A stretch of DNA of 63,958 bases, filler included, from an uncultured Myxococcia bacterium (GTDB lineage: Bacteria > CAZTWC01): the NCBI GenBank assembly GCA_964617105.1. It is 4 parts of 4 records of this genome, joined end to end, with 100 filler letters (N's around TTAATTAATTAA, not from the genome) between each part and the next. Parts side by side here need not be neighbours in the genome. Positions count along the whole stretch, not along the records: positions 1 to 18,829 come from CAZTWC010000044.1; 3 more parts are not named here. The stretch is one strand, 5' to 3'. Positions 1,046 through 18,929 of the stretch are shown here, piece by piece. The notes below the pieces were generated by a model, which had not been told where the DNA came from, did not search any database, and was given only the letters and a program-made list of their open reading frames with translations. The translations under genes and the position numbers were made by a program. Every line of letters starts with the position of its first letter. The first letter of the stretch is position 1.

Positions 1046-1114
1046 GCAACCGGCATCCGTCTAGTCAACCCGGGTATTCTTTTCATTCTTAAAAACTGCG
1101 AACTATTCTTAACT

Positions 1115-3247
1115 ATGAAAATCAACAATTCAGAAGGAACCCTGATTATTTACCGGGATGGCCGCAAAACTGAAATTGGAATTGTGGCCGGTGAAAAAAA
1201 GGAAAAGCTGGTGGTGGTTAACTCCAAGAGTGCATCCACTGCCATAAAAATGGAACGAATAATCTTTTCCAAGGGTCACTTTTGTCAAAAGGGGACGGTT
1301 CTGGCCCGGGGAAAAGAAAGCCTGGCCCAATTACAAAAAAATGTTCAAAAGAATTCGGAAACTATTGATCTGGCCGAATTGTGGGAATTGTTGGTGGATG
1401 AAGAGGATAGTTTGTCTTTGGAGGAGATGGCCAGTTATTTGACCGATAGTCCGGCAGTAGAGGAGGTGGTTGCTCTTAATCAAACGCTGGGGGAAAACTC
1501 TACCTATTTTAAATTAAAAGGGGAGTTGTTTTCATTATGCTCCAGGGAAGCGGTGGAAGAGAGTTTAAGGCAAAAAGAGGCAATCCAAAAACGGCTGGAA
1601 TATCAAAAACTCTTTATCCAAAATGTGCTGGGTGCTCTCGGGAAAGAGGAAGGAACGCTGTCTTCGCTGGAAAACGAATTCCCTGATAGTTTAGACCTTT
1701 TACGCCAATACGCTGCCTGGCAATCATCTTTTCAACGTAAAGAAGAAGCGGATAGAATAATAGAACTCTTGCTGGAGGAAAAAAAGCGATACACTAACTC
1801 CAAAAAGCCAAATGAGCCCAGAGAAAACCAAAAAAACACTGAACTTCCTTTTCCCCTTTGGCAACAAGGCCAACCCTTTGAAATTGCCTTTAAAATTCTG
1901 GTCAATTTGGGGCTGCTAGACAAAAATGAAAACCTGGGATTAATAAAACACAACATCAGACCCGTTTTCTCCAAATCCCTGCTGCAGTACAGTGAAACCG
2001 TAATTAAACCCGGGAAAGAGAACCATCTTGTAGAAGATAATTTTTACCGCTCCCATTTAGACCTCCCCATTGTCACCATTGATGACCCTGATACCCAAGA
2101 AGTAGACGATGGTGTGAGCCTGAGTCGCCTGGAAAATGGCTGGGAGATAGGTGTACATATCGCTGATCCTGGTTTTTTAGTCCAGATAGATGACCCCCTG
2201 GACCGGGAGGCTTATGCCCGCGCCTCTACCCTCTATTTGCCTGACAGACCCATTTATATGCTTCCTAAAGATATCTCCTGCCAGGCTGCCAGCCTGGTTG
2301 CTGGCCAGAAACGCCGGGCTATATCCTTTTTTATCCATCTGAATAACTCGCCAGATGAGCCGCCACAATTGCGTATTACCCCCTCTATTATCCGGGTAAA
2401 GCAGAGAATGGATTATCAGCAAGTAGACAGAATTCTGGAAGGGGTAGAGGAGGACAATTTTCAGTTAAATAAGCTGTTTCTGCTGGCTGAAAAGTTGCGT
2501 CATAAACGGCTTCCAGATAATTTTGTTTTTTTTAACGAAAAGGAGTTGAAGATAAAATTTGACTCCGAGGAAAATCCCCTCATCCAATATATCGAGCCCA
2601 ACACCCCCTCCAGACGCCTGGTGGCGGAATTGATGATCTGGACTAACCATCTGTGCGCTCGATTTTTCATGCAAAACCAGATACCCGCGATCTACCGCCG
2701 ACAACCAGCCCCTCAAGAAACCGTCCCTTTTCAGGGCGAGGTCACATCACCTTTTCAGATCTACCGGTTGCGGAGGATGCTCAGTAAAACCGAGATAGAG
2801 TTAAAGCCAGGTTTCCACTGGGGTCTGAATCTGGAAGAGTATGCCCAGGTTACCTCACCCTTAAGGCGTTACGGCGACATGGTGGCACTACGGCAACTCA
2901 AATCCTTCCTGAAAGATGGTACTCCGGTTTATGAAGAAGAGGAGATATGGAAAATCGGGCTGGAGATGGAACGGGGGCAAATATTACTAAAAAAACTGGA
3001 GCGGGAGCGCCGTGACTTCTGGCTGTTTAAATACTTACAAAAAAATATGCTAAAAAAAGAGAGTCCAGCAATAATATTAGAGAAGGAAAAAGCCTTTTAC
3101 AAAGTTGCACTCACCGATTACCAATGCTATGTCAATTTATATGATCGGACTCACAGTTCTCCAGGAGACAATACCAGGGTAACCATCCATGCGGTTAATC
3201 CTTTTAGAAGAAAATTAGTTCTAAAGGAGATCAATTACAAAAGTTGA
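1115..3247 (+). CDS. RNB-domain exoribonuclease (RNase II/R family)
   Basis: TIDDPDTQEVDDG catalytic motif, VHIAD, STLYLP, LVAELMI, HWGL...Y.QVTSPLRRYGD. Confidence 0.9.
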   Translation: MKINNSEGTLIIYRDGRKTEIGIVAGEKKEKLVVVNSKSASTAIKMERIIFSKGHFCQKGTVLARGKESLAQLQKNVQKNSETIDLAELWELLVDEEDSLSLEEMASYLTDSPAVEEVVALNQTLGENSTYFKLKGELFSLCSREAVEESLRQKEAIQKRLEYQKLFIQNVLGALGKEEGTLSSLENEFPDSLDLLRQYAAWQSSFQRKEEADRIIELLLEEKKRYTNSKKPNEPRENQKNTELPFPLWQQGQPFEIAFKILVNLGLLDKNENLGLIKHNIRPVFSKSLLQYSETVIKPGKENHLVEDNFYRSHLDLPIVTIDDPDTQEVDDGVSLSRLENGWEIGVHIADPGFLVQIDDPLDREAYARASTLYLPDRPIYMLPKDISCQAASLVAGQKRRAISFFIHLNNSPDEPPQLRITPSIIRVKQRMDYQQVDRILEGVEEDNFQLNKLFLLAEKLRHKRLPDNFVFFNEKELKIKFDSEENPLIQYIEPNTPSRRLVAELMIWTNHLCARFFMQNQIPAIYRRQPAPQETVPFQGEVTSPFQIYRLRRMLSKTEIELKPGFHWGLNLEEYAQVTSPLRRYGDMVALRQLKSFLKDGTPVYEEEEIWKIGLEMERGQILLKKLERERRDFWLFKYLQKNMLKKESPAIILEKEKAFYKVALTDYQCYVNLYDRTHSSPGDNTRVTIHAVNPFRRKLVLKEINYKS

Positions 3248-3281
3248 TCAGTTTTACCAGTAGGTTATGAGAGGTGAAACC

Positions 3282-4697
3282 ATGAAAATATACAACACCA
3301 TGTCCCGCCAGGTGGAAAACTTTTTACCGATTGAAAAGGGTAAAATAAGGCTCTACACTTGCGGCCCCACGGTTTATAACTATGCTCATATCGGCAATTT
3401 GCGCACTTTTATGTTTGAAGATTTTCTTAAACGCTCTCTGGAATATTTGGGTTTTGAAGTGCGCCATGTGATGAATATTACCGATGTGGGCCACCTGGTG
3501 TCTGATGCTGACCAGGGAGAAGATAAAATGGAAAAAGGAGCCCGGCGGGAAAAAAAATCGGTCTGGGAGATAGCCCAGTTCTATACCGAAGAGGTGCAGA
3601 AGGATTTTGCCGCCCTGAACATCAAGCCCCCAACAGTATGGTGCAAGGCCACTGATCATATCCAGGAACAGATGGACCTGATTAATAGACTGGAAGAGGC
3701 TAATTTCACCTACAAAATTGAAGACGGTATCTACATGGATACCGATAAGTTGGCTAATTACGGCAAATTGGCCCGGCTTGACAAAAGCAACCTGAAGGCC
3801 GGCGCCCGGGTAGAAACTTCATCGGGAAAACGTAACCCGGTTACCGATTTTGCCCTCTGGAAATTCTCGCCAACCGATCAAAAACGGCAGATGGAGTGGG
3901 ACTCTCCCTGGGGTAGAGGTTTTCCCGGCTGGCATATTGAATGTTCTGCTATGGCCATAAAATACCTGGGTGATAACATCGATATCCATTGCGGTGGAGT
4001 TGACCATATCCCCATCCACCATACTAATGAAATAGCCCAGGTGGAGGCGGTTACCGGTAAAACCTGGGTCAATTACTGGATGCACGGCGAGTTTTTGGTG
4101 GTGGGCAAAGATATTAAGATGTCAAAATCACAAGATAATTTTCTATCTTTGGCAGAGTTAAAACGCCAGGGATTCGCTCCAACAGCTTACCGCCTCTTTG
4201 TGTTAGGCGCCCATTATCGTAACCCTCAGACCTTTTCCATGGAGGGGCTCAACTGCGCTCAGTTATCCTGGCGGCGACTACAAAACATAATGCGCTGCTT
4301 AAAAGAGAATTTTGAAACTGCGCCTCCTGCCCGGGAAGAGATAATCGGAAAATGGAAAGAAAAATTCAGCCAGGCAGTTGGCAACGATCTTAATATGCCC
4401 CAGGCACTGAGCATACTATGGACCGCCCTGCAAGACAATGAACTGGGATTTCGGGAGAAATGGGAATTAGCTCTGGACTTCGACCAGGTATTGGGCTTGC
4501 AACTGGAAGAGGCTGCCCACTCCTGTGCTCAGGATGAGGTGGAGATGAACGAGGAGATCGAAAAGATGATCCAAGCCCGGGAAAAAGCCAGAAAAGAAAA
4601 AAACTGGGCTGTAGCCGATTGTGTTCGCGATGAACTAAAGTCCATGGGTATAGTTTTGGAGGATACACCAGAGGGAGTTAGGTGGCGCAAGGGTTAG
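3282..4697 (+). CDS. cysS: Cysteine--tRNA ligase
   Basis: YTCGPTVY, HIGN, DFALWK, PGWHIECSAM, KMSKS; start moved to ATG 3282 after GAGGTG SD. Confidence 0.97.
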   Translation: MKIYNTMSRQVENFLPIEKGKIRLYTCGPTVYNYAHIGNLRTFMFEDFLKRSLEYLGFEVRHVMNITDVGHLVSDADQGEDKMEKGARREKKSVWEIAQFYTEEVQKDFAALNIKPPTVWCKATDHIQEQMDLINRLEEANFTYKIEDGIYMDTDKLANYGKLARLDKSNLKAGARVETSSGKRNPVTDFALWKFSPTDQKRQMEWDSPWGRGFPGWHIECSAMAIKYLGDNIDIHCGGVDHIPIHHTNEIAQVEAVTGKTWVNYWMHGEFLVVGKDIKMSKSQDNFLSLAELKRQGFAPTAYRLFVLGAHYRNPQTFSMEGLNCAQLSWRRLQNIMRCLKENFETAPPAREEIIGKWKEKFSQAVGNDLNMPQALSILWTALQDNELGFREKWELALDFDQVLGLQLEEAAHSCAQDEVEMNEEIEKMIQAREKARKEKNWAVADCVRDELKSMGIVLEDTPEGVRWRKG

Positions 4698-4815
4698 ACG
4701 AAGTGAATTTTCGGACGGTAACAAGGTAATGAAAATCTAATACCCCCTCAGTTTTTTTATATATCCAACAAAATCCACAGAGCAGTTATCTTAACAATTT
4801 CAAACTGTTATACAA

Positions 4816-4831
4816 TGGCACAGTTATTGCT
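4816..4831 (+). promoter_or_regulatory. Sigma-54 (-24/-12) promoter
   Basis: TGGCAC-AGTTA-TTGCT matches TGGCAC-N5-TTGCW consensus, about 95 nt upstream of the lipoprotein start. Confidence 0.7.
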
Positions 4832-4924
4832 ATAAATTTAAGCGGAGAGAACACTCCTCAAAGATATCAGATTTTTGTTAACTAAACTAAACATAATGAG
4901 TTCTTAACCATGATGGAGGAAAAA

Positions 4925-7900
4925 ATGGCTAACCGAAAAAAAACATTGTTTCTATTTATGACCCTGGTCGCCCTGTTCATGTTGGTGGTTTATCTGCCCG
5001 GCTGCGGCAGCACGGTGAGCAAAAAAAAAGGGGGAGATACCGGAGAGGGAATCACCGTTGACCCGGGCGACAAAGTAGATGCCGACAAAGTGGGCGATAC
5101 CGAGAATTACCATCCCGGCCAGACCGACTTTGTTTCCGGTTCTACCAGCGGACAAGGGGGGGGCGATGACGGCATGATGGAAGAGGGCGCCAGAAACGAT
5201 ACCACTTTGGGTGATGCACCACCGCAAGCCGGCGGCGGCACTAGTGAGTCGAAAAGTGCAGACGCCGGAGCGCCAGGAGCGCCCCAGGGCAGGGTTGGCG
5301 ATGTGGAGGAAGCCGATCTCTACCGCATTGATGGCAAATATATGTTTCTGCTAAATACCTACCGCGGCTTTATGACCTTTGATATCTCGGATCCCAAAAA
5401 TCCCAAAAAATTGGGCTCCCTGGGAGTTTATGGTTACCCCATTGAGATGTTCGTGGAAAACGACCAGGTATTTGCCCTGATTAGCGATGCCCTGATCCTG
5501 CGTAAAAGCGACACTGGAAAGATGGAGTTTGAAAAGTTAAACATCAGCCAGTTGGTGAGTATCGACATCTCTGACAAAGAGAAGCCCAAAACCATTCAAT
5601 CCTTTGATATTAAAGGAAAACTACAGGAAGGTAAATCGCGCAAGGTTGAAGATACTATCTATCTGGTGTCTAATCAGTACAAATCCTACTGGTGGGGATG
5701 GGACTATGAACGGGATGATCCAAATCAAAAACGGGAGGATGCAGTTTATGTCTACTCTTTTGATGTGTCGGATCCAAACAAAATTAAAGAGGTTGATAAA
5801 CTCAACCTGCTAAGTAAATTTGAAAATACCACCGAAAATGGATTGAGCATCAGTTACTACCGCTCCGATCTGCAGATATCTGCCACTGCCAATGCGCTGC
5901 TGGTGGCCCAAAATGGACGCTATAATGAAAGAACAAACTATCAAAACAACAGCCCGGAGAAAACCGAGGACTTTGATGGCGATAGAGATGATGTAGAGGA
6001 AAAAGTTGAGGGGCCAAGTTCTGGCAGCGGCAGCACTTCAGATGCAGAATACAGGTGCTCCCACTATAAAAATTTCGATGTAACTGACATCTCCATTGTG
6101 GATATCTCCGATCCTAAAGGACAAATCAGTGTGTACAGCAAATTCCGGCTGGATGGTAAAATCAACGATCAGTTTAAGATGACCTACAAGGTGGACGAAA
6201 AAAGCGGTGATGCCTATGTTTTTGCTGTCACCCGTATGAACAAGAGCGAACGGAATCAAACAGACTGCAAATACTCCAATATAAACCGCAACATGGTTTA
6301 CTCGGTGGATGTAAAAGATGGCCAGAAACCCCAGGTGGTGGATGAGTTGATCATTGGTAAAACCGAAGACAACGAGACCGTAAAAGGCTCTCTGTTCAGG
6401 AGCGATGATACCCTGTTTGCCATCACCTCCCGCCGGATAGATCCCCTGTATGTTATTAGCCTCAAAGATCCAAAAGATTTGAAGATATTGAGCATGATCG
6501 ATGGGCTGAGCGGAGATATCAACGTATTCCGCTTTATCGAAGGAGAAAAATATTTACTGGGTATCGGCCGCGATACCTCCAGCAGTTGCAAGGGTTTCTC
6601 CACCGAAGTTATCAACTCACGGGTAGCGGCCAGCATCGTGGATATCAGCGATTTGAACAATATAAAACTGGTGCAAAGAGCCTGCGTGTTAATCGAGGGC
6701 GCTAAAAACTCCCACTCTGATGTCAACTGGAACCTGGACCAGGCCCACAAGATGATCAGCCTGTATGACAGCCAGGACACCAATATCCTCACCATTCCGG
6801 TGCAGGCCTGGGTAAAGGGTGAAAAGGGAAGCGAATATCCCTGGGGTCACTATGTAACCGCCATTGGAATTATGACCTGGGATACCACTAAATACGATGA
6901 AACTAAAAAACCGGATGATCAGGAAGTTATGCAAAACCGGGGCAGTATCATTCACCCCAACGGCAAGGTTAAACGCACGGTGGTCACTGACCGTCAGGAT
7001 GTTAAAGATGAGCAGATGATCTTAAATATTTCCGACACCCACTTAAGTTTTGTGGATATCCACGACCTGGCCAAACCTTTTATCATCTCCACCCTGGAGT
7101 TGGCCGCCAACAACCGTAACATTTTCCAGTTCGGCGACTATCTGGTCAAGCAAATTGCCCATGGTGACTACACCTATGGATACGATGGCGACCGGGAGAG
7201 CAATGAGTTCAGAGTGGTAAAAAAAGATTCTCAGGCTGATGACAGTGAGGTGGTAGCCTCTTTTAGCGCCGGCGCGGTAACCCGGGCGGTAAAAGCTGGT
7301 GACAACCTGGTACTCTTTAGGGTAAAATACAACTCCAAATACGCTAATGAGAGAGATCCTAGTAAACCCTACGACTATACCCAAAATTACCATACCACAG
7401 TGACCATATGGAGCCTCAAAGACCCCATAAATCCCAAAAAACTGGGGGAGATCTCCGATAGGCGCTACCTATACTTTTCCTACGACCGGTATGGCGGTGG
7501 CGGCGGATATGGCGGTGGTGGCGGGGTTCGCGAAGGTGGAATTGCCACCGATGGCGCAGAAGTGTCCATGCCTATGGTCTGCAGCAACTGTGGATGGTGG
7601 TGGGGTCCTTACTATGCCGGCGACAACCTGGTGGTGCTGAAAGACTCCATCCACATCACTCAGCAAAAATCCTGGTCAGAGTATTACTGGGTGGACAAAG
7701 ATGGCAAAGAGGTAGAGGTAACCGAACCCACAGGTGATATGAAAAATGATGATGGAGAACGTGATGGTGAGAAAAAGAAAGAGGAAGAGGAAGATTTTTA
7801 TAATAAATATAAACGCCGTTACCGCTATCTGAGTACCACCTACATGCACACTCTGGACCTGCGCGATACTCAAAAGCCCCAATTCTACCAGCCGGTGGAA

Positions 7901-8704
7901 ATGAAAGAGAAAAATGTTATCGGACTTTTACCTTCCCCTGAAGGGAAATCCTTTTACATGAACTATCGCGAAGCTCAAGAAAGGAATAAGCCGGAAGATC
8001 CCATGTACTACAAATATTACACTATTAAATGGGATGCCTCTGACCCATCAAACCTGACTAAGGGAACCAGCATCAATGTGCCGGGCGAAGTGGAGAAAAT
8101 TTTTCTCAAAGATAAGGAAACCCGGCTGTTGAGCCTGGATTACCAGTATTACAAGTTTACCGACCCTCAGAACAGCAAACAAGAATATACCTACACCCGC
8201 CGCTCCTACAACTTGTTGCGCATAATCAACCAGGGTGGTAAAACCATGGCCGAACTTTTGCATACATACAAGCTGAACGACTGGCAGGTTAACAGCACCG
8301 CTATTTCCAAAGACAATCAGATCTCCCTGATAGTGGATCTGCCCTACTTTATTCTCAGAGCGCTGTTTGGCGATAAATATTGGCAAAATCAATATGACCG
8401 GATGATGATCCTCGACTTTTCCGGCGACCAGATTGTATCCAAGTTTAATGGAGAAACCAAGTTGCAGTATTCCAGACTGCTGGGTGCCAGCGATGACTAC
8501 CTGTTTATCTATGTTAACGGCCTGGGAATATTGACTATCGACAAAACCGATGCTGCCAAACCAGTGGCCAAATTCTTCACCCGTACCATGGGGTGGCTCA
8601 ACACCATGTTGGTGGACGACAAATACGCCTTTGTCCCCGCCGGCCTGTATGGGCTCTATGCCATTGACTTGGGAGGAATCGGAAATATCGAAATAACCAA
8701 ATAA
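4925..8704 (+). CDS. Large secreted lipoprotein with beta-propeller domain (Beta_propel-like)
   Basis: Signal peptide with LPGC lipobox; VEEAD.Y..DG, DISDP..P repeats, IDPLYVI.L.DP..LK typical of this family; GGAGG SD before ATG 4925. Confidence 0.8.
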   Translation: MANRKKTLFLFMTLVALFMLVVYLPGCGSTVSKKKGGDTGEGITVDPGDKVDADKVGDTENYHPGQTDFVSGSTSGQGGGDDGMMEEGARNDTTLGDAPPQAGGGTSESKSADAGAPGAPQGRVGDVEEADLYRIDGKYMFLLNTYRGFMTFDISDPKNPKKLGSLGVYGYPIEMFVENDQVFALISDALILRKSDTGKMEFEKLNISQLVSIDISDKEKPKTIQSFDIKGKLQEGKSRKVEDTIYLVSNQYKSYWWGWDYERDDPNQKREDAVYVYSFDVSDPNKIKEVDKLNLLSKFENTTENGLSISYYRSDLQISATANALLVAQNGRYNERTNYQNNSPEKTEDFDGDRDDVEEKVEGPSSGSGSTSDAEYRCSHYKNFDVTDISIVDISDPKGQISVYSKFRLDGKINDQFKMTYKVDEKSGDAYVFAVTRMNKSERNQTDCKYSNINRNMVYSVDVKDGQKPQVVDELIIGKTEDNETVKGSLFRSDDTLFAITSRRIDPLYVISLKDPKDLKILSMIDGLSGDINVFRFIEGEKYLLGIGRDTSSSCKGFSTEVINSRVAASIVDISDLNNIKLVQRACVLIEGAKNSHSDVNWNLDQAHKMISLYDSQDTNILTIPVQAWVKGEKGSEYPWGHYVTAIGIMTWDTTKYDETKKPDDQEVMQNRGSIIHPNGKVKRTVVTDRQDVKDEQMILNISDTHLSFVDIHDLAKPFIISTLELAANNRNIFQFGDYLVKQIAHGDYTYGYDGDRESNEFRVVKKDSQADDSEVVASFSAGAVTRAVKAGDNLVLFRVKYNSKYANERDPSKPYDYTQNYHTTVTIWSLKDPINPKKLGEISDRRYLYFSYDRYGGGGGYGGGGGVREGGIATDGAEVSMPMVCSNCGWWWGPYYAGDNLVVLKDSIHITQQKSWSEYYWVDKDGKEVEVTEPTGDMKNDDGERDGEKKKEEEEDFYNKYKRRYRYLSTTYMHTLDLRDTQKPQFYQPVEMKEKNVIGLLPSPEGKSFYMNYREAQERNKPEDPMYYKYYTIKWDASDPSNLTKGTSINVPGEVEKIFLKDKETRLLSLDYQYYKFTDPQNSKQEYTYTRRSYNLLRIINQGGKTMAELLHTYKLNDWQVNSTAISKDNQISLIVDLPYFILRALFGDKYWQNQYDRMMILDFSGDQIVSKFNGETKLQYSRLLGASDDYLFIYVNGLGILTIDKTDAAKPVAKFFTRTMGWLNTMLVDDKYAFVPAGLYGLYAIDLGGIGNIEITK

Positions 8705-8708
8705 CCAA

Positions 8709-8750
8709 TTAGATGAGCCGGGCGGTTATTCTGAACCGCTCGGCATCTAA
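8709..8750. terminator. Long GC-rich hairpin after lipoprotein gene (terminator or mRNA stabiliser)
   Basis: TTAGATG-A-GCCGGGCGGTT / AACCGCTCGGC-ATCTAA inverted repeat; no strong U-tract. Confidence 0.6.
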
Positions 8751-8931
8751 ATCCCAGGAAATCTCTCTAAGAAAAAAAAATGGATTAGTTTTGATAAAAA
8801 AAAAAGTTTGTAATTTTTTTGCTTTTCTCAATTTTTCCGATAAACTTGTTAATATCAAATTGACAAAAATATTTGGGGGGAGTTTTTAGACAAGATTTTT
8901 ACCATGTCCAAATCCAAATGGGGAAGAGAAG

Positions 8932-9348
8932 ATGAGAATCAAATCGAGAATTGTAGACAATGATATTGTGGTGATGGAACTGGCAGGAAGTTTCAATTTC
9001 GCCTCTACAACCAAATTCGCGGAGGAGAGAAAGAGATATACCGGCCTGAACTATAAATATTTCGTTATCGATTTCCACAAGGTGAATCGGGTGGAGTCAG
9101 TAGGCTTCAGAGAACTTTTAATCCTGTTGAACCACATCCGTGAACATAAGGGCGAATTCGTCTTTTGCGATATGTCCGATTTTCTCTCTTACTGCTTTGA
9201 ATCTTTGGGGATTAAAAAAATTATCAAATACTGCCTGGTTCAACAGGGAGCAATTGATTACATCCAAACCCAAAAACAGACCAAACCTGAATTGGTGACG
9301 GCAAAAGTCACAAATGCCAGGGTCTTTCAGCAGACTCACGCCTTATAA
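8932..9348 (+). CDS. STAS-domain protein (anti-sigma factor antagonist)
   Basis: VVMELAG.F, FVIDF..V..VES.G phospho-Ser motif, size 138 aa. Confidence 0.8.
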   Translation: MRIKSRIVDNDIVVMELAGSFNFASTTKFAEERKRYTGLNYKYFVIDFHKVNRVESVGFRELLILLNHIREHKGEFVFCDMSDFLSYCFESLGIKKIIKYCLVQQGAIDYIQTQKQTKPELVTAKVTNARVFQQTHAL

Positions 9349-9420
9349 CTTCAGTTGACTACAAGAGCAGCCAATCAATCCACAGTTATATTCTAGCGGC
9401 TCTCAATTATCACATCATAC

Positions 9421-10626
9421 TTACAGATGCAACGCCTTCAATTTAGTATACTTGAAAAGGTAAGCCACCACTATACCAATGCCAAAACCAACCGCTAAAT
9501 TAGTGGCTAGTGAGACTCCCAGCATCACTATTACTACAAACAGGTCCAGGCGCTCTTTGACGTCCATAATCATCATGGCCAATTGGACGCCGGCAAAGCA
9601 AAGCAGGGCTCCCAGAATCGAAAACGGTAATAATTTAAAAATACCTATAGCCATATCTCCAAACATAGTGGCAACGGCGAGAAAAATAGCACCTATGATT
9701 AAATTAGAGCCAGCAGTCCTGGCGCCGAAACGATAGTGGGCTGCCAATCCGCCGGCGCCGTGACACAACGGCATGCCGCCCAAAAAACCGGTCATAATAT
9801 TCATTAGCCCCATTGAGATGGCCAGCGCTCGCGGGGTGCAGCGCTTTGATAGGTCCGGGCCAAAATATTCGCGGGTTAAATCGGTCTGAGCCACCACTGC
9901 GTTTCCTATGGTCATGGGAATCTGCGGTAAAGCCAGGGCAGTTAATCCAATAACAATTTCTGATGCGCCTGGCCATCCAGAAAACAAGGGCTGGGGCAGA
10001 TACAGACCAAAATGAATCCCATCTAGATTACGCCAACCTCCCAGCAAAACACCTGCCATAGATCCACCAATAACTACTACCAGGGCGGCTGGGACCATCC
10101 GGTTTTCCAAAAGGACAAAAATCAAAACCACTGCCGCCAACCCCAGGATAACCCCAAGAGAAACCGGACCCAGGTAGGTAGTGGTTAGCAAATATTCAAC
10201 ACTTCCGGGACCCACCGGCAAATTGGTCTCTCCCAGTATGAGTTTGACCCCCTGGGTGAATAAAAGTATACCGGTGACTAGTTGGACACCTCGAATTGTC
10301 GACTTGGGCACTATCTTGCCTACCAAAGTTATCAAGCCGGTTATGGCCAAAAGGAGCAATAGCCCACTGATCCACAAAGCAGAAATTGATATTTGCTCTG
10401 GACTGGCAGCGCTGGCAATAGCATAGGCACCAATCACCTTCATGGGCTGAACAGGAACGGTGATTCGAAAATATAAGCCACTTAGAATGTAAAACCAACC
10501 AATACAGAAAAAAACCGCCGTGGAATCCAGGCCGTTCAAGAGGATCATCCCAAAAGCCAAAGGTAGAAGTGTCCCCAGATCACCAAGAGAACCCGCCACT
10601 TCTTGCCGATTAAAACGAAGATTCAA
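9421..10626 (-). CDS. Putative molybdate/sulfate transporter (MOT1 family)
   Basis: E.AGSLGDLGTLLP, PVQPMK, GGMPLCHGAGGLAAHYRFGART signatures; about 10 TM helices; TTG start. Confidence 0.88.
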   Translation of the reverse strand: MNLRFNRQEVAGSLGDLGTLLPLAFGMILLNGLDSTAVFFCIGWFYILSGLYFRITVPVQPMKVIGAYAIASAASPEQISISALWISGLLLLLAITGLITLVGKIVPKSTIRGVQLVTGILLFTQGVKLILGETNLPVGPGSVEYLLTTTYLGPVSLGVILGLAAVVLIFVLLENRMVPAALVVVIGGSMAGVLLGGWRNLDGIHFGLYLPQPLFSGWPGASEIVIGLTALALPQIPMTIGNAVVAQTDLTREYFGPDLSKRCTPRALAISMGLMNIMTGFLGGMPLCHGAGGLAAHYRFGARTAGSNLIIGAIFLAVATMFGDMAIGIFKLLPFSILGALLCFAGVQLAMMIMDVKERLDLFVVIVMLGVSLATNLAVGFGIGIVVAYLFKYTKLKALHL

Positions 10627-10700
10627 TTAGAAACTCCCGTCTATCAATAAAAAAATAGTAATTATTCAGATTATATCGATTTGCAGTAATACTGCCCTTA

Positions 10701-11678
10701 CTAATAAATGCTGATAAACAAAGCACCCTGCCCCATAGAGCGCTCCTTTTCTAATAACATATAAGCCGCTATACTACTGCTCAGCGCTGCCACCCCAACA
10801 ACCGACCAAAACCACCACTTATTATAGATCGGTTCCAACTTCACTATGGGCTTTTCCCCTTTGGAGGAGGGAACCACTTTTACCTGAAAGGGCTGCTTCT
10901 GGTTGCCACAAAGAGCGGGTACATTGTCCAGGTTGTCAATGGAAACAATATAATAGGAGAATAGCGGCGGGGATATTTGTTGACCAGGAATCACCGCCTG
11001 AAATAAATTATTATCCAGTTTTGCCATTATTTTTTTCTGATATTTTTGTTCCTCTTTGGTTCTGTACTTAACCATTGCCTCTTTTACGCCGCTTTTATCT
11101 CTTATTTTGGCCGATATTTTCAACTCCTCCCCTGCCTGCCCCAAAGGAACCGGTGTATGCTCTATCCGGGGAGAAAAAATATCTTCCATGGTTTCCCGGG
11201 CTTCATTAAAAGTATGGACAATCTTGGGGGAAAACATTTTTTCATCCAACACCATTTCCGGTGAAAAACGGAGAGTATTGGAGAAAGCCGCCACTGCCTG
11301 TTGGTGTTCACCCAATCCCAGGTGACACCTGCCAACTAAAAAATAGATGGCAGCAATAATCTCCCGGCCGGCTTTATCCTCTTGCGGCTCAACCGTTTCG
11401 ATCTTTTTCAACCCCACCAGAGCCTGCTGGTACTCCAACAATTCTAACAACTCCTTACCCTTATCATAAATAACCTGCAGATCCTTAAACCCCTTTGCTT
11501 TCGTATTTACACTGCCACTTTCTTTAGCAGCATCTGTTGCCACCTCCCTGAAAACCTCTTTTGGAGTTTCCCCCGGGACCTCCTCCTGAGCCAAACTCAC
11601 ATTAGCCAGTAGTAACAAAAGATAAATATAAGGAATAAAACGAATAATTTGTGGACTCATTTGTTCTTTAAAACTCAA
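10701..11678 (-). CDS. Secreted TPR protein with Ig-like domain and C-terminal membrane segment
   Basis: Signal peptide, TPR-like helices, PRIEHTPV..beta domain, PIYNKWWFW.VVG anchor typical of Myxococcota; overlaps kinase stop. Confidence 0.65.
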   Translation of the reverse strand: MSFKEQMSPQIIRFIPYIYLLLLLANVSLAQEEVPGETPKEVFREVATDAAKESGSVNTKAKGFKDLQVIYDKGKELLELLEYQQALVGLKKIETVEPQEDKAGREIIAAIYFLVGRCHLGLGEHQQAVAAFSNTLRFSPEMVLDEKMFSPKIVHTFNEARETMEDIFSPRIEHTPVPLGQAGEELKISAKIRDKSGVKEAMVKYRTKEEQKYQKKIMAKLDNNLFQAVIPGQQISPPLFSYYIVSIDNLDNVPALCGNQKQPFQVKVVPSSKGEKPIVKLEPIYNKWWFWSVVGVAALSSSIAAYMLLEKERSMGQGALFISIY

Positions 11679-13606
11679 TCTTTTTTGGCAATTATGGTAA
11701 TCAATTTCAAATTGAGTTTATACTCTTTCTTTTTAATGGGGCAATAAAAATTCAATACTTTATAAAAAGGCAACGGACCTTTCATGGTCATGGGAGTAGC
11801 CCCCAAAACCCGATCATTCTGCCGTAACTCGCTCCAGGGAGAAGTATCTACAGCCAATCTGACCAGAATCGATCTATCCTGGTTATCCTGGTTGCTAATT
11901 TTAAAACTTCCCTTTAGTCTAATAACAAAATCCCCCTCATTGTTTTTCATTGACATAAAAAAGGGTTGTCCTTTTTGAATGGTGATGGACACCGGAGTAG
12001 AGTCATGTTTTTGTCCATTGACACTTGCCGTTAGCCAGGGTTGGGCCTCTGCGATTATCTTTATGGGGTTTATCTCTGGAGGGGGTGTTACTTTGACCCT
12101 ATCTGCATTCTCTTTTTGAATTTCTTCCTTTCCCGGAGCCGCCACTTTATTTGAGGCCACTACCAGGGGCGCCTTTTTCTTTACCTTTCCGAATAGTCTT
12201 TGAGGTTTCTTTTCCTCTCTCCGGTTTACTGGTAAATTTTCCAGATTTTTATTAACGGCTTTCTCTTCCAGGCTTTTTGTCTTTTTAGTTTTATCTAATG
12301 AGCCTCCGGTTTCCACCTCCCGGGCATTCTCTTGGGGGGAGATGCTGACCACTTTGGAAGTATCCATCTTCTGAACGATCTCTTTAGGCTCCGAACGCCC
12401 TAACTCCTTATGGGGGTTTCCTTCATCCTTTTGAGTTAAAACATCAAACATTGATATCAATGAAATCATCAACACCCCTGCTAAAATGGCATAAACCTTT
12501 AATTTAGACTTTTGGGGCATTTTTTGTATGGGAGGGCTCTCAACCGGTGTATCAATCTTGCTTCTGCTTCCCTGGATAGTCGCCGGTATTGCCACCGAAG
12601 TTTCAACCGAAGAAATCCTGGTCGACACGGAGGACACCTCCCCCATCCCTATTTCCTCAATGACACTATTAGCTTCTTCTGCCTCTCTCTGTAAATCCTC
12701 GGCCAGATTATTTTTCAAAAACTGATAGAGAGAAATGGCGTTGCCCTGGATATTTTTATGGTGGCAATAGGTGTCTAACTCCTCTAAAAACTCCTGTGCA
12801 TTCTGAAATCGTTCCCAGGATGAATATTTTATGCTCTTGAGAATAATACTTTCCAATTCTGGTTCCAGGTGCTTGTTGTAGTAGCACAAGGGTTTAATCT
12901 CACCTGAACGGTTCTGTTGTAAAGTAATAAAAGAGCCGGTTTCCGAAAATAGTTTTATCCCGGTGAGCAACTCATACCCCACCACTCCCAAAGCATACAG
13001 GTCACTTCTATGGTCAACTTCCACACCGGTAAACTGCTCAGGAGACATGTAGGCTAATTTACCCTTTATGGTCCCCTCCATGGTGTGAGAGATAAAAGTG
13101 GTTGACTTAGCAATGCCAAAATCGGTAATTTTCACATCGCCCTGTGTGGAAATCAAAATATTCTGGGGGCTGATATCCCGGTGAATAAGACCAAGTTGAT
13201 TACCTTCTAAATCTTCGGTATTATAAGCATAATGAAGACCGCTACATACACTGCGCAAAATATGGATCACATCACCTACTGGTAATTGCAGACCTTGACG
13301 GCTCAGGTAATTGATCAGTTTCATAAGATCAATACCCTGGACATACTCCATAACCATATACAGAGTATCTCCCCAAAAACCGTAATCATAAACCTGAGTA
13401 ATATTACTGTGGTTGAGAAAGGCGGCTAACCGAGCCTCCCGATTGAACATCTCCCGAAACTCTTCGGATGCGGCCAAATGAGGAAGCATTTTCTTCAATA
13501 CCACCTTTTTAGCAAACCCTCCTGGTCCAGTTCGATGAGCCAGAAATATCTCCGCCATTCCACCGACAGCCAATCGATTTAATATTGTATAATCACCAAT
13601 CTGCAA
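11675..13606 (-). CDS. Membrane-anchored Hanks-type Ser/Thr protein kinase
   Basis: LAVGGMAEIF, VVLK, HRDISPQN, DFGIAK, GKLAYMSPEQ; TM helix; extracytoplasmic C-terminus; TTG start. Confidence 0.93.
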   Translation of the reverse strand: MQIGDYTILNRLAVGGMAEIFLAHRTGPGGFAKKVVLKKMLPHLAASEEFREMFNREARLAAFLNHSNITQVYDYGFWGDTLYMVMEYVQGIDLMKLINYLSRQGLQLPVGDVIHILRSVCSGLHYAYNTEDLEGNQLGLIHRDISPQNILISTQGDVKITDFGIAKSTTFISHTMEGTIKGKLAYMSPEQFTGVEVDHRSDLYALGVVGYELLTGIKLFSETGSFITLQQNRSGEIKPLCYYNKHLEPELESIILKSIKYSSWERFQNAQEFLEELDTYCHHKNIQGNAISLYQFLKNNLAEDLQREAEEANSVIEEIGMGEVSSVSTRISSVETSVAIPATIQGSRSKIDTPVESPPIQKMPQKSKLKVYAILAGVLMISLISMFDVLTQKDEGNPHKELGRSEPKEIVQKMDTSKVVSISPQENAREVETGGSLDKTKKTKSLEEKAVNKNLENLPVNRREEKKPQRLFGKVKKKAPLVVASNKVAAPGKEEIQKENADRVKVTPPPEINPIKIIAEAQPWLTASVNGQKHDSTPVSITIQKGQPFFMSMKNNEGDFVIRLKGSFKISNQDNQDRSILVRLAVDTSPWSELRQNDRVLGATPMTMKGPLPFYKVLNFYCPIKKKEYKLNLKLITIIAKKD

Positions 13607-13756
13607 TTAATTAGACCTGTTTTAAAAGAAATTTAAATATTGTATAAAAAGACCATCTTATGATATCATAACTCGCAATGAATATCTCAAAAAAAGTCGT
13701 AAATGAGACTTCCAGAAGGAGCAAACATCATAATTTAACGCAAATAAAGAGGCAGT

Positions 13757-15031
13757 ATGAAAAAGTGGCATAAAAAACTGGGGATTTTAATCAGCTGTTT
13801 TTTTATCCTAATCAACTTAAATTCCTTTTCTCTGGCCAAAGGCAAAAAAAAGAAAAGCCCAACAAAAAAACTCTGGGAATTTGACGTAGAAAATGGAGTA
13901 ATTAATCAACCGGTTTTTGACCATCGGGGAAATATTTTTCTTTCAGTGGATTCCGGCCTGGACGGCAAGTTAATATCCCTGTCTAAACATGGAAAAAAAA
14001 GATGGGAATTTGCCACCAAAGGGAGGCTTCTCGCCCCTCCGGCTATCGGCAAAAAAAACCAACTATATATTGGAGATGCTGGTGATTACTCTTTTAGTTC
14101 ACCAGAAAAATCTGGAAACAGTATCTATGCATTGAAAAAAGGGAAATTGCAGTGGACCTTTACAGTTGGAGGCAATATAAAAACCGCCCCCTTATACCTG
14201 TCCCCAGATTTAGTGGTGGTTGGAGCCATAGACGGCTACCTGTACGCCCTCACCCCGGGAAATTGTTTAAAAGGGGACAAGAATCATTCGGCAGGTACTT
14301 ACATAGAGCAAGAAACCAAATTCGGTTATGACCGGAAAAAAATCGATGACCCCCATAAGTGTCTAAAATGGCAACTCAATTTGAATGGTAAAATTACCAC
14401 CCTCAAAAAAGCGGTGGATAATTCGGTTATCTATGCACTGGAGAGTGAAACCAATAGTGTGTATGCTATAAATTTAGAGGGAAAAAAACTCTGGCAATTT
14501 AGTTTGCCTGGAAGCCATATCTACCACATTGCTAATGGTTGCGATCATAGTGTCTATCTGGCGGCAGGCAAACTAATCGCCATTGATGGAAAAGGAAAAA
14601 AACTCTGGGAGTGGGCGGCGGCAGATGTGGAGTTGGCCGGAATCTCCCAACCCTTGACTGTGGACAGTAAAGGAAACGTGCTGGTGGGGTTTGAAGATTA
14701 TTCTCTAGACAGTACCAGTTATTACCTATATGCCATTGGCAGCAAGGGAAAGTTGAGTTGGAGCCATAAAGTCACAGGGAAAATAAAATATAATTCAGCC
14801 GTGGATACAGCTGGCAATACCATTGTGGGCACAAAAAAGAATATGCTCTTTGCTACTGACCATAGGGGTAACGGTCTCTGGCAGGTGGAATTGAATAACG
14901 AGCCCATAGGCAAACCAGTGCTGACCAGCCGAGGCAAGATGCTGATTACCCTCTATAATCATAAAGTAATTATGTTCAAGTCTAACTTGAAAAAACCAGA
15001 TATTTGTAAATCCCCCGGCAAGAAAAAGTAG
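13757..15031 (+). CDS. Secreted PQQ-like beta-propeller repeat protein
   Basis: Signal peptide; repeated .YA....GK..W.F motifs. Confidence 0.8.
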   Translation: MKKWHKKLGILISCFFILINLNSFSLAKGKKKKSPTKKLWEFDVENGVINQPVFDHRGNIFLSVDSGLDGKLISLSKHGKKRWEFATKGRLLAPPAIGKKNQLYIGDAGDYSFSSPEKSGNSIYALKKGKLQWTFTVGGNIKTAPLYLSPDLVVVGAIDGYLYALTPGNCLKGDKNHSAGTYIEQETKFGYDRKKIDDPHKCLKWQLNLNGKITTLKKAVDNSVIYALESETNSVYAINLEGKKLWQFSLPGSHIYHIANGCDHSVYLAAGKLIAIDGKGKKLWEWAAADVELAGISQPLTVDSKGNVLVGFEDYSLDSTSYYLYAIGSKGKLSWSHKVTGKIKYNSAVDTAGNTIVGTKKNMLFATDHRGNGLWQVELNNEPIGKPVLTSRGKMLITLYNHKVIMFKSNLKKPDICKSPGKKK

Positions 15032-15081
15032 CAGGGGGCAAACTCTTTTTCGGAAAAAACCAAACGAAAAGGGCGTACCCA

Positions 15082-16218
15082 ATGAACTATTATAATATCC
15101 AATATTTTCCAGCCGGATCCACGATATTCAGAGAAGGCAACGAAGGAAATACCGCGTTTGTAATCAAAAAAGGCAAGGTGGAAATTTCCAAAGTGTTTGG
15201 CAGTAAAAGAGTTATTCTCGACCTATTCTCCCAGGGGTCAATATTCGGCGAAATGGCCCTCCTGGTTGACACCACCAGAACTGCCACTGCCACCGCTGTA
15301 GAAGACAGTGAACTGATAGTGATCAGCAAACGGCAACTTGACGATGTGCTAAACGAAGCACCGTCTCTTACCAAGACCCTGATTGTTTCCCTGGTGGAGC
15401 GTCTTAAAAATACCTCAAAAAAAGTTAATATTCTTAATAGCGACAACATTTTTTACAGCATCTGCCATATTTTAGCCATCTTATTTGAAAACAGTGAAAA
15501 TGAAGATCATTCGGTTAGTTTTCAAACCATCAGAGCCACTATTAAAAATATCCTCACTATCACCGAAATGGAGTTGCGCAGTATTATCGATAAACTGGTC
15601 GCTCTCAACTTGATTGAAAAAATTAAAGGCCCCAAGTCCCAGATAACCCTTCGCCTCTTAGATCAAGAAAATTTTATTACCAAAGTTCGACGTTTTCTCA
15701 AGGAGTTCTCTAGTTCAATGCCAAATTATCAAAACCAGATTACTGAAATGCTAGACCTGGTTGATATCGCCAAGTTGGTTGAAGTAGAGGAGGACAAAAT
15801 TCTAGCCAAAATTGCCAGTGGTGAATTCCCCAAAGAAATTTGCCTGTTTCCCAGGACCGCTTTCACAAAATGGATCGAAGAGGTGGGTAAAGACTCCTTT
15901 GATAAAAAATTTCGCCGGCGCAAAAAAGTGGAAGATTTTTGTGAATTAGCCGACATTATGTATGTCGACAACAACACCCTGCGGCAAGTATTGGGAACCA
16001 TTGACGTTTACAAATTATCCCGACTGATGAAAGACGCGGAAGACGAAATTGCCAAAAAAATAAAAAACTGCCTTTCCACCAAGGTAAAGGCCACTTTGGA
16101 AGAAGAGATCAAATATGTGGAAGAAGTTGACCCCCTAGAATTTGAAGATTATGAGGATGAACTGATCAATATGATTAAGGCTATTAAACTACAAAAAACT
16201 CCGCCCATTCAGGACTAG
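15082..16218 (+). CDS. cNMP-binding protein with Crp-like wHTH, HTH_17-like domain and C-terminal FliG-C-like domain
   Basis: IFREG..G, FGEMAL...RTATA phosphate-binding cassette; C-terminus DIMYVDNNTLRQVL..ID...L...MKDA..EI..KI..CLS......L.EEI resembles FliG_C. Confidence 0.75.
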   Translation: MNYYNIQYFPAGSTIFREGNEGNTAFVIKKGKVEISKVFGSKRVILDLFSQGSIFGEMALLVDTTRTATATAVEDSELIVISKRQLDDVLNEAPSLTKTLIVSLVERLKNTSKKVNILNSDNIFYSICHILAILFENSENEDHSVSFQTIRATIKNILTITEMELRSIIDKLVALNLIEKIKGPKSQITLRLLDQENFITKVRRFLKEFSSSMPNYQNQITEMLDLVDIAKLVEVEEDKILAKIASGEFPKEICLFPRTAFTKWIEEVGKDSFDKKFRRRKKVEDFCELADIMYVDNNTLRQVLGTIDVYKLSRLMKDAEDEIAKKIKNCLSTKVKATLEEEIKYVEEVDPLEFEDYEDELINMIKAIKLQKTPPIQD

Positions 16219-16246
16219 ATCCTATAGAAATGTTTCATAAAACAAT

Positions 16247-18829
16247 ATGCCCCCCACCCACAAACATACAAACCACGACCAAACTCTATCAAAAGAAAAA
16301 ACCTGCTCTTTTTGTTTAACCAAATTATACGCTAATTCTATCTTTTGCCATAAATGTGGATCGGAACTTAAAGGCCATTACCAGGAAGTTATCACTTGTC
16401 AACTGTGCCAGGAACGGTTGTTGCCCCAATCTCTTTTTTGCCATAAATGTGGTCATCGCCAGGGACAGCCTTCCATCTCCGACCAAAAAGATATCCAATG
16501 GGGGGAACGAAAAACTGTTACTGTTCTGTTTGCTGATGTGGTGGGATTTACCAAACTGACAGAACAAATGGACCCAGAAGATGTCCGGGATATGATGGAT
16601 CGGTGTTTCAAGGTAGTTTCCCGGGAAATAAAAATAAAGGGTGGTAATGTCAACAAGTATATCGGTGATGCAGTACTAGCCATCTTTGGAGCGCCGTTGG
16701 CTCACGATAATGACCCGGAAAGAGCGGTTAACGCCAGCCTAGATATTCAAAAGGCATTAAAAGATTTGAACCAGGAAATGATGACCAACCTGGGCGTTAA
16801 AATCCATATGCGTATTGGGTTAAATACCGGAAAAGTGCTGGCGGGCTATATCGGTGACGAGGAAAAACGGGAATATACCGTAATGGGAGATACGGTTAAC
16901 CTGGCATCCAGGCTGGAATCTTGTTGCCGTCCAGATCAGGTATTGATTAGCAACTCAACTTTCAGAGCCATCAGAAATCGTTTTAAATGCAAATCATTAG
17001 ACCCCATTAATCTCAAAGGTAAAAGTGAACCAGTGGCAACCTACGAGGTGCTTTATCCTCTAAGCGGTGTGCGGCACAAAAAACTGTTTAAAGTGCATGG
17101 GGTGATCACCGAACTTATCGGGCGAAAAAAAGAGTTTGATTCAATCAAAATTAATTTTAACCAAAGTATTGACCAAAAATCCTGCCAAATCGTTACTGTA
17201 ATCGGCTCCGCAGGCATGGGCAAAAGTCGGTTAGCCGAAGAGTATAGGCTCTATCTCAATTCACTCCCTTACCAGGTAAATATTGAAAAAGGGTTTTTTA
17301 CCCAGGATATGGCTCCCTCTTTAAGGGTTTCGCCGATATAATCAAGCATAAGGCTGACATACGAGAGAGTGACCAGGCAGAAAAAGCCCGGGTCAAACTG
17401 CTTAAAATGGTGGGTAATATTTTCGCTCCCGAAGACCCCCAAGAGCAACAGAAATCTAAACTGGCGAACCGTATTGGCAAACTCTTTCCTTTGGGTGCCA
17501 ATAAAATCAAACAGAAGATGGAAAACGCCATCATTGAAGAAAACACCCATTTTATCGGCCAACTAATTGGCCTCGATTTTCCAGGCAGCCCATATATTGA
17601 ACCAATTAAAGATGACCCCCGCCAAATCCTGATGCGTTCTTTTCGCATCTTAGCGGCAATGTTCAACCGCATGGCGGAGAAAGCGCCCATGGTGATATTT
17701 CTGGAAGATATCCACTGGGCTCAAAATATCGCCCTGGAATTGATAAATTTTCTCTGCACCACCATTAAAGAGCGAACGATTTTTTTCTTCTGCCTGGCCC
17801 GGCCCGAATTGTATCAGCGCAGCCACGATTGGGGTCGGGAATCTGATTTGCATACCATGCTGGATCTAAAGCCTTTGACCGAAAACGATATCCTCGAATT
17901 TGGCCGGCAAATTCTGCACAAAATGGAAACCATCCCTTCTCGGTTGCTGCAAATAATAAAAAGCCATTCAGAGGGCAATCCTTTTTTTGTGGAGGAAATA
18001 ATCAAAAACTTTATCGAAGATGGAGTGATTGAGATCTCTGAAAATGACCGTATCTGGAAGGCCAATGAAGATCTATTGGATCTTTCAGCAGTTCCCAATA
18101 CTATTGAAGGTGTAGTTCAGGCCCGGCTGGATCGGCTTCCTCCGGACGAAAAAATGATCATTCAAAAAGGGTCGGCAATTGGCCGGGTTTTCTGGATCGG
18201 AGCACTTAAGGCTATGGATGAAAGTGCTGCTGAAAAAGCCCTGGACAAACTTCAGGATAAAGAATTGGTGTTCCAAAAATCCACCTCCAGTTTTGAAGGT
18301 GATCGCGAATATATCTTCAAGCATCAACTAACCCAGATGGTGGCTTATGAAAATACTTTAAAAAATTTGCGCCGCCTCTACCATGAAATAATCGGAAAGT
18401 GGTTAATCGAAGTAAGTGGTGAACGAATAGATGAATATTACAGCATGATCGCCAACCACTTTGAGAAAGCGAAAAACTGGGAGACCGCCTTTGCTTACTA
18501 CGCCAAGGCCGGTGATCAAGCCAAAGATATCTATACCAATAAAGGAGCTATTGACCATTATAAATTGGGGCTGTCGTTACTTCAAAAGTTAGTCCATACT
18601 CCCAAAAACGCCATAATCGCCATTACTATGCACGAAGGGCTGGCCGATGTCTATCAGTTAGTGGGTGATTACGATGAAGCCATCCGGCAATATCAAAATG
18701 CCCTGGACACTCTGATTAGATACAACTCCGACCAACCGGGCTCTGGAAGAAAAGTTGACAGAAAAGAAGGCTCTCTCTCCCTGGCGGAAGCCAGAGCAGA
18801 GTTTACCCGTAAAACCGGATGGGTTTATC
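16247..18829 (+). CDS. Double zinc ribbon + class III adenylate cyclase + AAA (STAND-like) + TPR protein; frameshift near 17294-17299; 3' truncated by contig end
   Basis: CxxC pairs; ERKTVTVLFADVVGFT, NKYIGDA, YTVMGDTVNLASRLE; GSAGMGKS P-loop; the -1 frame continues YPGYGSLFKGFADII...LEDIHWA, GNPFFVEE into ORF 17407. Confidence 0.88.
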
Positions 18830-18929
18830 NNNNNNNNNNNNNNNNNNNNNNNNNNNNNNNNNNNNNNNNNNNNTTAATTAATTAANNNNNNNNNNNNNNN
18901 NNNNNNNNNNNNNNNNNNNNNNNNNNNNN
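18830..18929. other. Artificial contig linker N44-TTAATTAATTAA-N44
   Basis: 100 nt, stops in all six frames, identical at three places. Confidence 0.97.

Follow-up and report, generated by a model that had tools for sequence, protein, structure and literature searches.

Results and discussion

The window analysed here is a stretch of 63,958 nucleotides from an uncultured Myxococcia bacterium (assembly GCA_964617105.1). At 15082–16218 on the + strand it encodes a 378-residue protein, P0001, in which a cyclic nucleotide-binding (CNB) sensor, a winged helix (wH) and a second, small helix-turn-helix (HTH) are joined to a homologue of the torque domain of FliG, the part of the flagellar rotor that is pushed on by the stator protein MotA. 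By its open reading frame (ORF) call, its Pfam domains and a family search, P0001 belongs to a conserved family of soluble receptors for cyclic nucleotides that shares this CNB-wH-HTH-FliG_C architecture and has yet to be characterised, and a motA-like gene lies directly downstream of the family gene, on the same strand, in 12/12 loci outside this genome whose downstream DNA is visible. These features suggest that the family protein may be a regulator, gated by a cyclic nucleoside monophosphate (cNMP), that binds the stator by rotor mimicry, a proposal to which we give an even chance. The whole case for a link to the motor is made of gene order, homology and co-occurrence; it is much better supported than the original prediction, made from the DNA of the window alone, could have known, and it points to the stator.

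Domain architecture and fold of P0001

Pfam recognises two domains in P0001, cNMP_binding (PF00027) at residues 7–91 (15100–15354; E 1.8e-23, 82.7 bits vs a cut-off of 27.5) and FliG_C (PF01706) at residues 288–368 (E 4.2e-9, 37.1 bits vs a cut-off of 23.3); these and all other features of the protein given below lie on the + strand. The phosphate-binding cassette of the cyclic nucleotide-binding β-barrel reads FGEMAL...RTAT and is intact at G56, E57, R66, T67 and A68, a pattern of Gly-Glu plus Arg-Ser/Thr-Ala that we take to be the phosphate-binding cassette of cNMP_binding domains. An AlphaFold2 model of P0001, built on 86 homologues (mean predicted local distance difference test (pLDDT) score of 91.1), contains the barrel and a long C-helix (residues 1–113), a CRP-like winged helix (residues 123–192; 15448–15657) and then a linker helix, followed in the C-terminal part by a strand-helix-helix-loop-helix unit (residues 219–273; 15736–15900) and a six-helix domain (residues 289–372). 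The C-helix itself (residues 95–113; 15364–15420), seen in the secondary structure of the model, would by comparison with CRP and Bd1971/Bd2879 serve in dimerisation and signal transmission. A separate model of residues 196–378 has a pLDDT of 92.2.

The assignment of the C-terminal domain as a FliG torque-domain homologue (residues 285–373; 15934–16200) is solid, with Pfam, Foldseek, superposition and a profile match all in agreement. It superimposes on the FliG_C domain of T. maritima (1qc7_B) with a Z score of 13.4 and a root-mean-square deviation (rmsd) of 1.6 Å over 88/89 residues at 27% identity, the Foldseek template-modelling (TM) score against FliG_C is 0.88, and other FliG structures give Z scores of 12–13. 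P0001 therefore has the same six-helix fold as the C-terminal domain of FliG (PF01706; 1qc7/1lkv), which is seen bound to MotAB in 8ucs, and the homology can also be detected by sequence (E 1.8e-16 with the family profile). An origin from MgtE_N was considered and ruled out, as MgtE N domains reach Z scores of only 4.5–6.4 vs 12–13 for FliG. Unlike FliG, P0001 has no FliG_N, FliG_M or ARM-C domain and no MFXF hinge, and most family members carry Asp at the position of FliG R297; lacking the former elements, P0001 cannot sit in the C-ring. In agreement with this, it scores 24.4 bits vs a cut-off of 226.7 against TIGR00207, the NCBIfam model of the FliG rotor protein.

The sensor half of P0001 aligns with T. 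thermophilus CAP (4ev0_D) over 191 residues (Z 14.5), and matches to CRP-family structures span residues 1–205. The CNB domain by itself is nearest in fold to that of Bdellovibrio Bd1971 (PDB 6hq4/6hq5/6hq7; Z 17.2, rmsd 1.6 Å, 30% identity), a protein whose output domain, unlike that of P0001, is an EAL phosphodiesterase. Because Bd1971 has been solved both with cAMP and with cGMP, either ligand is plausible for P0001. No PilZ domain was found by Pfam in P0001 or in the family tally.

These results bear out the original prediction that the ORF encodes a CNB domain with an intact cassette, a Crp-like winged helix and a FliG_C-like C-terminus, and the similarity of this last part to FliG_C is clear. 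The same source had also read an excisionase-like HTH_17 segment between the winged helix and FliG_C, and here the outcome is divided. HTH_17 (PF12728) has no Pfam match in P0001 at E<=1, but the modelled secondary structure of residues 219–273 fits a small excisionase-like HTH, and the domain is matched in 2/86 family members at E<0.01 (best 3.5e-4), with P0003 reaching E 0.06. The second HTH is thus supported by the model, by conservation and by these two matches, and its assignment to HTH_17 is only a lead.

A family with the architecture of P0001

A word-based search of 5.8 billion proteins returned only two full-length relatives of P0001. A HMMER search of 1.84 billion cluster representatives, in which the query was the non-CNB part of four relatives, gave 184 matches at E<=1e-10, of which 56 were at E<=1e-30. 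From these we assembled a family set of 86 full-length representatives, consisting of P0001 and 85 of the 150 matches listed, which are 358–478 residues long and cover most of the profile; shorter fragments and proteins that match the FliG_C part alone were excluded. cNMP_binding is present in 86/86 of them and FliG_C in 81/86 (E<=0.01), and FliG_M and FliG_N are each matched in 1/86, weakly. The ligand site is conserved across the family (G56 in 84/86, E57 in 76/86 and R66 in 68/86), and the second HTH has a family motif of its own, composed of K243, E248, P250, G269 and F273.

Named holders of a family gene are the magnetotactic Candidatus Magnetoovum chiemensis and Candidatus Magnetomoraceae, the culturable Pseudodesulfovibrio senegalensis (WP_151150857.1) and one gammaproteobacterial metagenome-assembled genome (MAG); further holders are MAGs titled Poribacteria and Nitrospirae, and Desulfovibrionales appear among the record labels. 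The family is rare, as it occurs in 3/401 genomes sampled across the bacterial domain, the present genome included, and in 6/176 genomes of one phylum, that of genome G001; the species genomes searched included no other member of the phylum to which the present genome belongs. Existing annotation describes family members only as Crp/Fnr or cNMP-binding proteins, and NCBIfam has no model for the CNB-wH-HTH-FliG_C family. A full-text literature search, whose coverage leaves out most subscription journals, found no publication that deals with a CNB-FliG_C protein or with the action of a cNMP receptor on the stator. This agrees with the original prediction that no characterised protein has this architecture; the nearest solved relative, Bdellovibrio Bd2879 (discussed below), lacks FliG_C.

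The present genome holds three family paralogues, on contigs C44 (which carries P0001), C127 and C389, and all three fall in an unresolved fork of a quick maximum-likelihood tree of 97 family members with a midpoint root. (The label motAB given in that tree to locus L045 is wrong, as its downstream DNA is not visible.) The C127 paralogue (C127:2820–4286, −) is 488 residues long as read; it has a 10-N gap near its C-terminus and a tail of about 75 residues past FliG_C, so that its true end is uncertain. The genome also encodes, on contig C37 (15324–15872, +; L003:1279–1827), a stand-alone protein of 182 residues that is nearly all FliG_C (Pfam E 1.5e-10, with a weak match to MgtE_N). It lies just upstream of a phosphofructokinase-like gene and is the fourth non-rotor FliG_C protein of this genome.

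Family genes in other genomes are followed by motAB

We examined 14 family loci outside the present genome, eight in genomes and six on metagenome contigs. A search with an alignment of four rows led to only two of the genome loci and to none in metagenomes; the six metagenome loci came from an alignment of three C-termini of Desulfobacterota type. In two of them (L007 and L045) the family gene ends at the contig end; the other 12 are those in which motA is invariably the next gene. The encoded proteins belong to the MotA/ExbB family and are 255–281 residues long, and the gap between the two genes ranges from a one-base overlap to about 45 nt. One MotA, that of L048, is a 151-residue fragment at a contig end and was recognised by its 47% identity to a MotA of the present genome (that on contig C170, described below) rather than by Pfam. 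Wherever the sequence reaches further (10/10 loci), motA is followed by a gene for a MotB_plug protein, with or without an OmpA domain. The motAB-linked loci differ widely in base composition (GC content of 0.30–0.63) and occur in the family tree to either side of its midpoint root.

The MotA of these operons is of the flagellar type, since it matches the NCBIfam models of MotP/PomA/MotA at E 1e-40 to 1e-52 vs 1e-4 for TolQ. In the present genome there are two motAB sets, on contigs C170 and C19, and 13/13 operon MotAs are nearer to the C170 MotA (38–55% identity) than to the C19 MotA (31–38%). By sequence, the operon MotA is thus a distinct type. Of the five holder genomes checked, four have a more canonical stator set in addition to that of the operon. 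The original prediction had suggested that the receptor could bind the motor, and this idea gains from the constant position of motA; as motA is directly downstream in every visible locus, however, the likely contact is MotA rather than FliM.

Other genes near these operons were also noted. In L008 the family-motA-motB operon sits between a gene for a cNMP-gated ion channel (4798–6381, −) and one for a SulP-STAS-cNMP transporter (9452–11668, +), and the SulP gene is also found in the related genome, at locus L022. On the metagenome contigs L043 (4562–5005, −) and L044 (4526–5050, −) the family gene has a divergent bactofilin gene upstream of it, and at L030, L032, L034 and L046 a gene for a class-V aminotransferase is found in the vicinity of the operon.

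Holders of the family are flagellated

A true FliG (ORFs of 333–373 residues, 83–129 bits) is present in 5/5 holder genomes tested. Among the 176 genomes in the phylum of G001, FliM occurs in 24, namely in 6/6 family holders vs 18/170 non-holders, counts that carry no test statistic because the genomes are related and not independent. The present genome has fliG (140.8 bits), fliM, fliL, fliJ and the two motAB sets, all of them off C44, so that the check for fliG, fliM and motA that had been recommended is positive and the earlier remark that C44 carries no flagellar genes also holds.

The C19 MotA is part of a canonical cluster, motA-motB-motB-fliL-fliM (L041:5605–9575), in which a single motA is followed by two motB genes and then by fliL and fliM. 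The operon-type motAB is that on C170, and directly upstream of it is a gene for a 164-residue membrane-anchored protein with weak similarity to DUF2802/DUF6115 (L040:3089–3580, −). This gene occupies the slot that the CNB-FliG_C gene has in other genomes, and fliJ adjoins on the opposite strand. That the 164-residue protein is a remnant of the family was considered and ruled out (hhalign probability of 0.6%).

Charged residues at the predicted interface

In E. coli, five charged residues of FliG (K264, R281, D288, D289 and R297) and two of MotA (R90 and E98), whose positions we verified in the proteins encoded by NC_000913, are reportedly the ones that act in rotor–stator electrostatics, as Zhou, Lloyd and Blair are said to have found in 1998. 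At the five FliG positions P0001 has K317, K334, E341, E342 and D350, and it therefore keeps the charge at four of the five torque-helix positions; the true FliG of the same genome keeps it at all five. For the family as a whole we counted 98 sequences, the 86 of the family set and 12 read from loci, with one sequence present twice. The R281 column is Arg or Lys in 81/98 and the K264 column Lys or Arg in 42/98, and the D288 and D289 columns are acidic in 55/98 and 53/98, respectively. On the stator side, most operon-type MotAs have a basic residue one or two places past the R90 column, in a loop where the alignment is itself uncertain by 1–2 residues, and the canonical C19 MotA retains both the Arg of the R90 column and the Glu of the E98 column. 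The picture that emerges from these sequences is of an interface surface that appears to have been re-tuned, not one that is degenerate.

A predicted cNMP-gated regulator of the stator

We propose that the FliG_C-like domain of the family protein would bind the cytoplasmic face of MotA, acting as a rotor mimic, and that cAMP or cGMP bound to the CNB domains, which are probably dimeric, would switch this contact on or off. The C-helix may form the dimer, on the model of CRP, Bd1971 and Bd2879 (PMC12750041), so that each receptor would carry two FliG_C domains, and nucleotide binding may alter their exposure. The receptor could in this way hold, lock, park or release MotA units of the second stator set, and would be a second-messenger brake, clutch or chaperone for the stator. 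In the present genome all three copies have left the motAB operon, and the ligand of P0001 may come locally from the STAND-type cyclase encoded next to it.

Several observations weigh against this proposal. The R297 column is reversed to Asp in 80/98 family sequences and is acidic in 83/98; Arg is absent from the R90 column of MotA in 13/13 operon MotAs (14/14 with the C170 protein); and Glu occupies the E98 column in only 7/14 (the C170 protein and 6/13 operon MotAs). Given this charge reversal, the loss of R90 and the partial conservation of E98, any interface is not a plain copy of the rotor–stator contact. Furthermore, none of the three paralogues of the present genome adjoins motAB. The next gene of the C127 paralogue encodes a 428-residue membrane protein with no family match and that of the C389 paralogue is a small HEAT-repeat ORF, and P0001, in a genome where neither it nor its paralogues lie beside motAB, may have changed function. 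Gene order by itself is no proof of contact. Lastly, the source for Bd2879, the nearest solved relative of P0001, ascribes two winged HTH domains to it and describes it as a putative transcription factor (PMC12750041).

This last point leads to the most serious of the alternatives, which we regard as possible if unlikely: the family protein would be a CRP-type transcription factor, in which cNMP would enable DNA binding by the winged helix and/or the second HTH, and the FliG_C-like domain would be an accessory protein-contact or feedback module. Its targets could be, for example, the promoter of the motAB operon in other genomes and other sites in the present one. Residues 1–205 of P0001 have the CNB, C-helix and winged helix arrangement of CRP/FNR factors, members are annotated as Crp/Fnr, and regulators often head the operons that they control. 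Bd2879 of Bdellovibrio bacteriovorus (PDB 9sfa; CASP16 target T1298) also consists of an N-terminal CNB domain and two helix-turn-helix domains; it aligns with P0001 over 303 columns by Foldseek (E 1.6e-11), and the comparison gives a VIA Z score of 15.8 over 210 residues at an identity of only 17%. The structure of Bd2879 is described, as far as the text consulted goes, only in the CASP16 target paper (PMC12750041), according to which the protein, unlike P0001, terminates not in FliG_C but in a disordered stretch that bears a zinc-finger motif; its phosphate-binding cassette, again unlike that of P0001, lacks the Arg. P0001 also departs from CRP/FNR factors in its additional ~180 residues, which make up the second HTH and FliG_C, and in its recognition-helix residues, which are not conserved. 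In the family alignment the conserved positions of the first winged helix are hydrophobic only, with no conserved polar residue, and HTH_Crp_2 is matched in only 1/86 members. P0001 scores 63 bits vs a cut-off of 266 against the NCBIfam CRP model and likewise falls below every curated CRP/FNR cut-off. Both HTH domains are neutral to acidic (net charges of −2 and −2 in P0001, family medians of +1 and −1). Apart from the CNB domain, it is FliG_C that is best conserved, and no role in DNA binding is known for it.

A bolder extension of stator binding is one that we consider quite improbable. It holds that the family protein has co-evolved with the motAB dedicated to it. Two FliG torque domains, held by a cNMP-sensing dimer, would engage the MotA ring of the spare stator; the result would be either a lock, gated by nucleotide, on a rotary motor driven by ions or a free-standing signalling device, made of stator and mini-rotor, that couples ion-motive force to cAMP or cGMP. 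In the present genome the module would have been rewired to a STAND adenylate cyclase. What suggests this extension is that the charge at the R297 position is reversed on one side and that, on the other, MotA has lost the Arg of the R90 position.

The neighbouring class III cyclase

The gene downstream of P0001 starts 28 nt past it on the same strand (16247–18829, +) and encodes a class III cyclase with an N-terminal double zinc ribbon, a STAND-type AAA_16 domain and TPR repeats. All of the domains that had been described for this gene from the sequence are found by Pfam (DZR zinc ribbon, Guanylate_cyc (PF00211), AAA_16 and TPR), with Guanylate_cyc at E 1.9e-35 and 122.5 bits vs a cut-off of 21.9. 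The catalytic motifs FADVVGFT, NKYIGD and YTVMGDTVNLASR are present; between them they presumably provide the two metal Asp residues, the Asn and the Arg, and a Lys/Thr pair of the kind that marks class IIIb enzymes with ATP specificity. The protein resembles STAND-type class III adenylate cyclases (cyclase, AAA_16 and TPR), from which it differs in its N-terminal double zinc ribbon and in being incomplete in the assembly.

In the window the cyclase is split between two frames (16247–17341 and 17287/17407–18829, with the shift near 17319/17320), and the end of C44 at 18829 cuts the gene. An intact paralogue of 1179 residues on contig C78 is collinear with it and places the frame change between 17245 and 17311. 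Of the public metagenome contigs that cover the cyclase, from four runs, three break at 17302–17347 and only that of run X2 crosses (depth 2.3). This contig has one extra T behind 17319, and with that T included 861 codons are open up to the contig end. As the extra T in an independent contig restores the frame, the frameshift in the window probably reflects either an error of assembly or a minor variant.

The original prediction had presented receptor and cyclase as a module. As a trait of the family this does not stand: a class III cyclase is the immediate neighbour in 0/12 loci outside the present genome, neither of the other two paralogues (C127 and C389) has a cyclase neighbour, and in the sample examined homologues of P0001 are thus never linked to a cyclase. 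The genome contains 14 class III cyclase domains on 14 contigs, several of them in cyclase-AAA-TPR ORFs of 1000–1300 residues, together with many cNMP-binding proteins, which amounts to a cNMP-rich signalling repertoire. With 14 cyclases, about 3700 genes (estimated) and six neighbour slots for the three paralogues, ~0.02 receptor–cyclase adjacencies would be expected by chance, which is suggestive, not decisive; given so many cyclase domains, a single adjacency is only mildly unlikely. The cyclase link of P0001 is therefore local, weak and unproven, and by its adjacency the STAND cyclase is a plausible local source of the ligand.

The same evidence bears on a further alternative, which we judge very improbable, namely that the STAND cyclase and P0001 form a local two-gene cAMP module whose output is unrelated to the stator and might be self-assembly through the C-terminal domain or contact with some other partner. 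The two genes share a strand and are separated by 28 nt with no terminator-like site on the + strand, the cyclase has its motifs and is in an intact frame in the independent contig, and this copy of the receptor has left the motAB operon. However, the arrangement recurs at none of the 12 homologous loci and at neither of the two other paralogues, its expected frequency by chance is no more decisive here than above, and P0001 keeps stator-facing charged residues. The weakest alternative, again a very improbable one, is a self-contained ion-driven device off the flagellum, in which MotAB would turn or pull a soluble mini-rotor, so that cNMP signalling or gene control would be coupled to the state of the envelope or to ion-motive force. 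In its favour, MotAB-like motors are known to drive non-flagellar systems (Tol, Ton, gliding and Zorya), the charge pattern is off-canonical on both sides (Asp in the R297 column in 80/98, Arg in the R90 column in 0/13) and the operon stator is extra to a canonical one in four of five genomes. Against it, every holder tested has flagella, the operon MotA clusters with MotP/PomA/MotA and not with TolQ/ExbB, and the orthologous motAB of the present genome adjoins fliJ.

The surrounding DNA

Positions 1–18829 of the window are one entire contig (C44, CAZTWC010000044.1) of a draft genome of 4.07 Mb in 489 contigs that is 96.5% complete. The window continues with other contigs of the draft, joined at 18830–18929, 37713–37812 and 56335–56434 by paired 44-N runs that flank a ttaattaattaa linker. 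As the window consists of joined contigs, genes across a joint are not neighbours, and the DNA beyond the first joint (18830–18929) is not contiguous with the receptor locus. Upstream of P0001 and on the same strand is a gene for a PQQ/BamB-like β-propeller protein with an N-terminal hydrophobic segment (13757–15031, +), and a simple scan found no terminator-like site on the + strand from this gene through to the cyclase. C44 also codes for a GGDEF diguanylate cyclase and for a Ser/Thr protein kinase whose C-terminal extension is long (101–1045 and 11675–13606, respectively).

Relation to known motor effectors and implications

To our knowledge, almost the only second messenger known to control the flagellar motor post-translationally is cyclic di-GMP (c-di-GMP), whose PilZ receptors can act on stators as brakes or stabilisers or by declutching them. 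YcgR, MotI/DgrA and FlgZ are PilZ motor effectors that respond to c-di-GMP. FlgX of C. jejuni is reported to be a PilZ tetramer that stabilises the stator (PMC11725899). The proposed logic of stator binding by the family protein is, by analogy, similar to that of these four, in that a small cytoplasmic receptor on the cytoplasmic face of the stator would alter motor output. Unlike the PilZ effectors, the family protein has a CNB domain as its sensor and a copy of the rotor torque domain as its binding module, and it is not a member of the PilZ family. With a CNB domain in place of PilZ, its messenger would be cAMP or cGMP rather than c-di-GMP.

We have thus found a widespread but unstudied family that joins a cAMP/cGMP sensor to the stator-contact domain of the rotor and is encoded with a second stator. 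The motAB synteny suggests that cAMP or cGMP may control swimming in a new way, and whether cyclic nucleotides act directly on stator engagement becomes a testable question. The family may also offer a natural soluble FliG_C–MotA pair for structural work on torque generation, as well as a reason why many bacteria retain spare stators.

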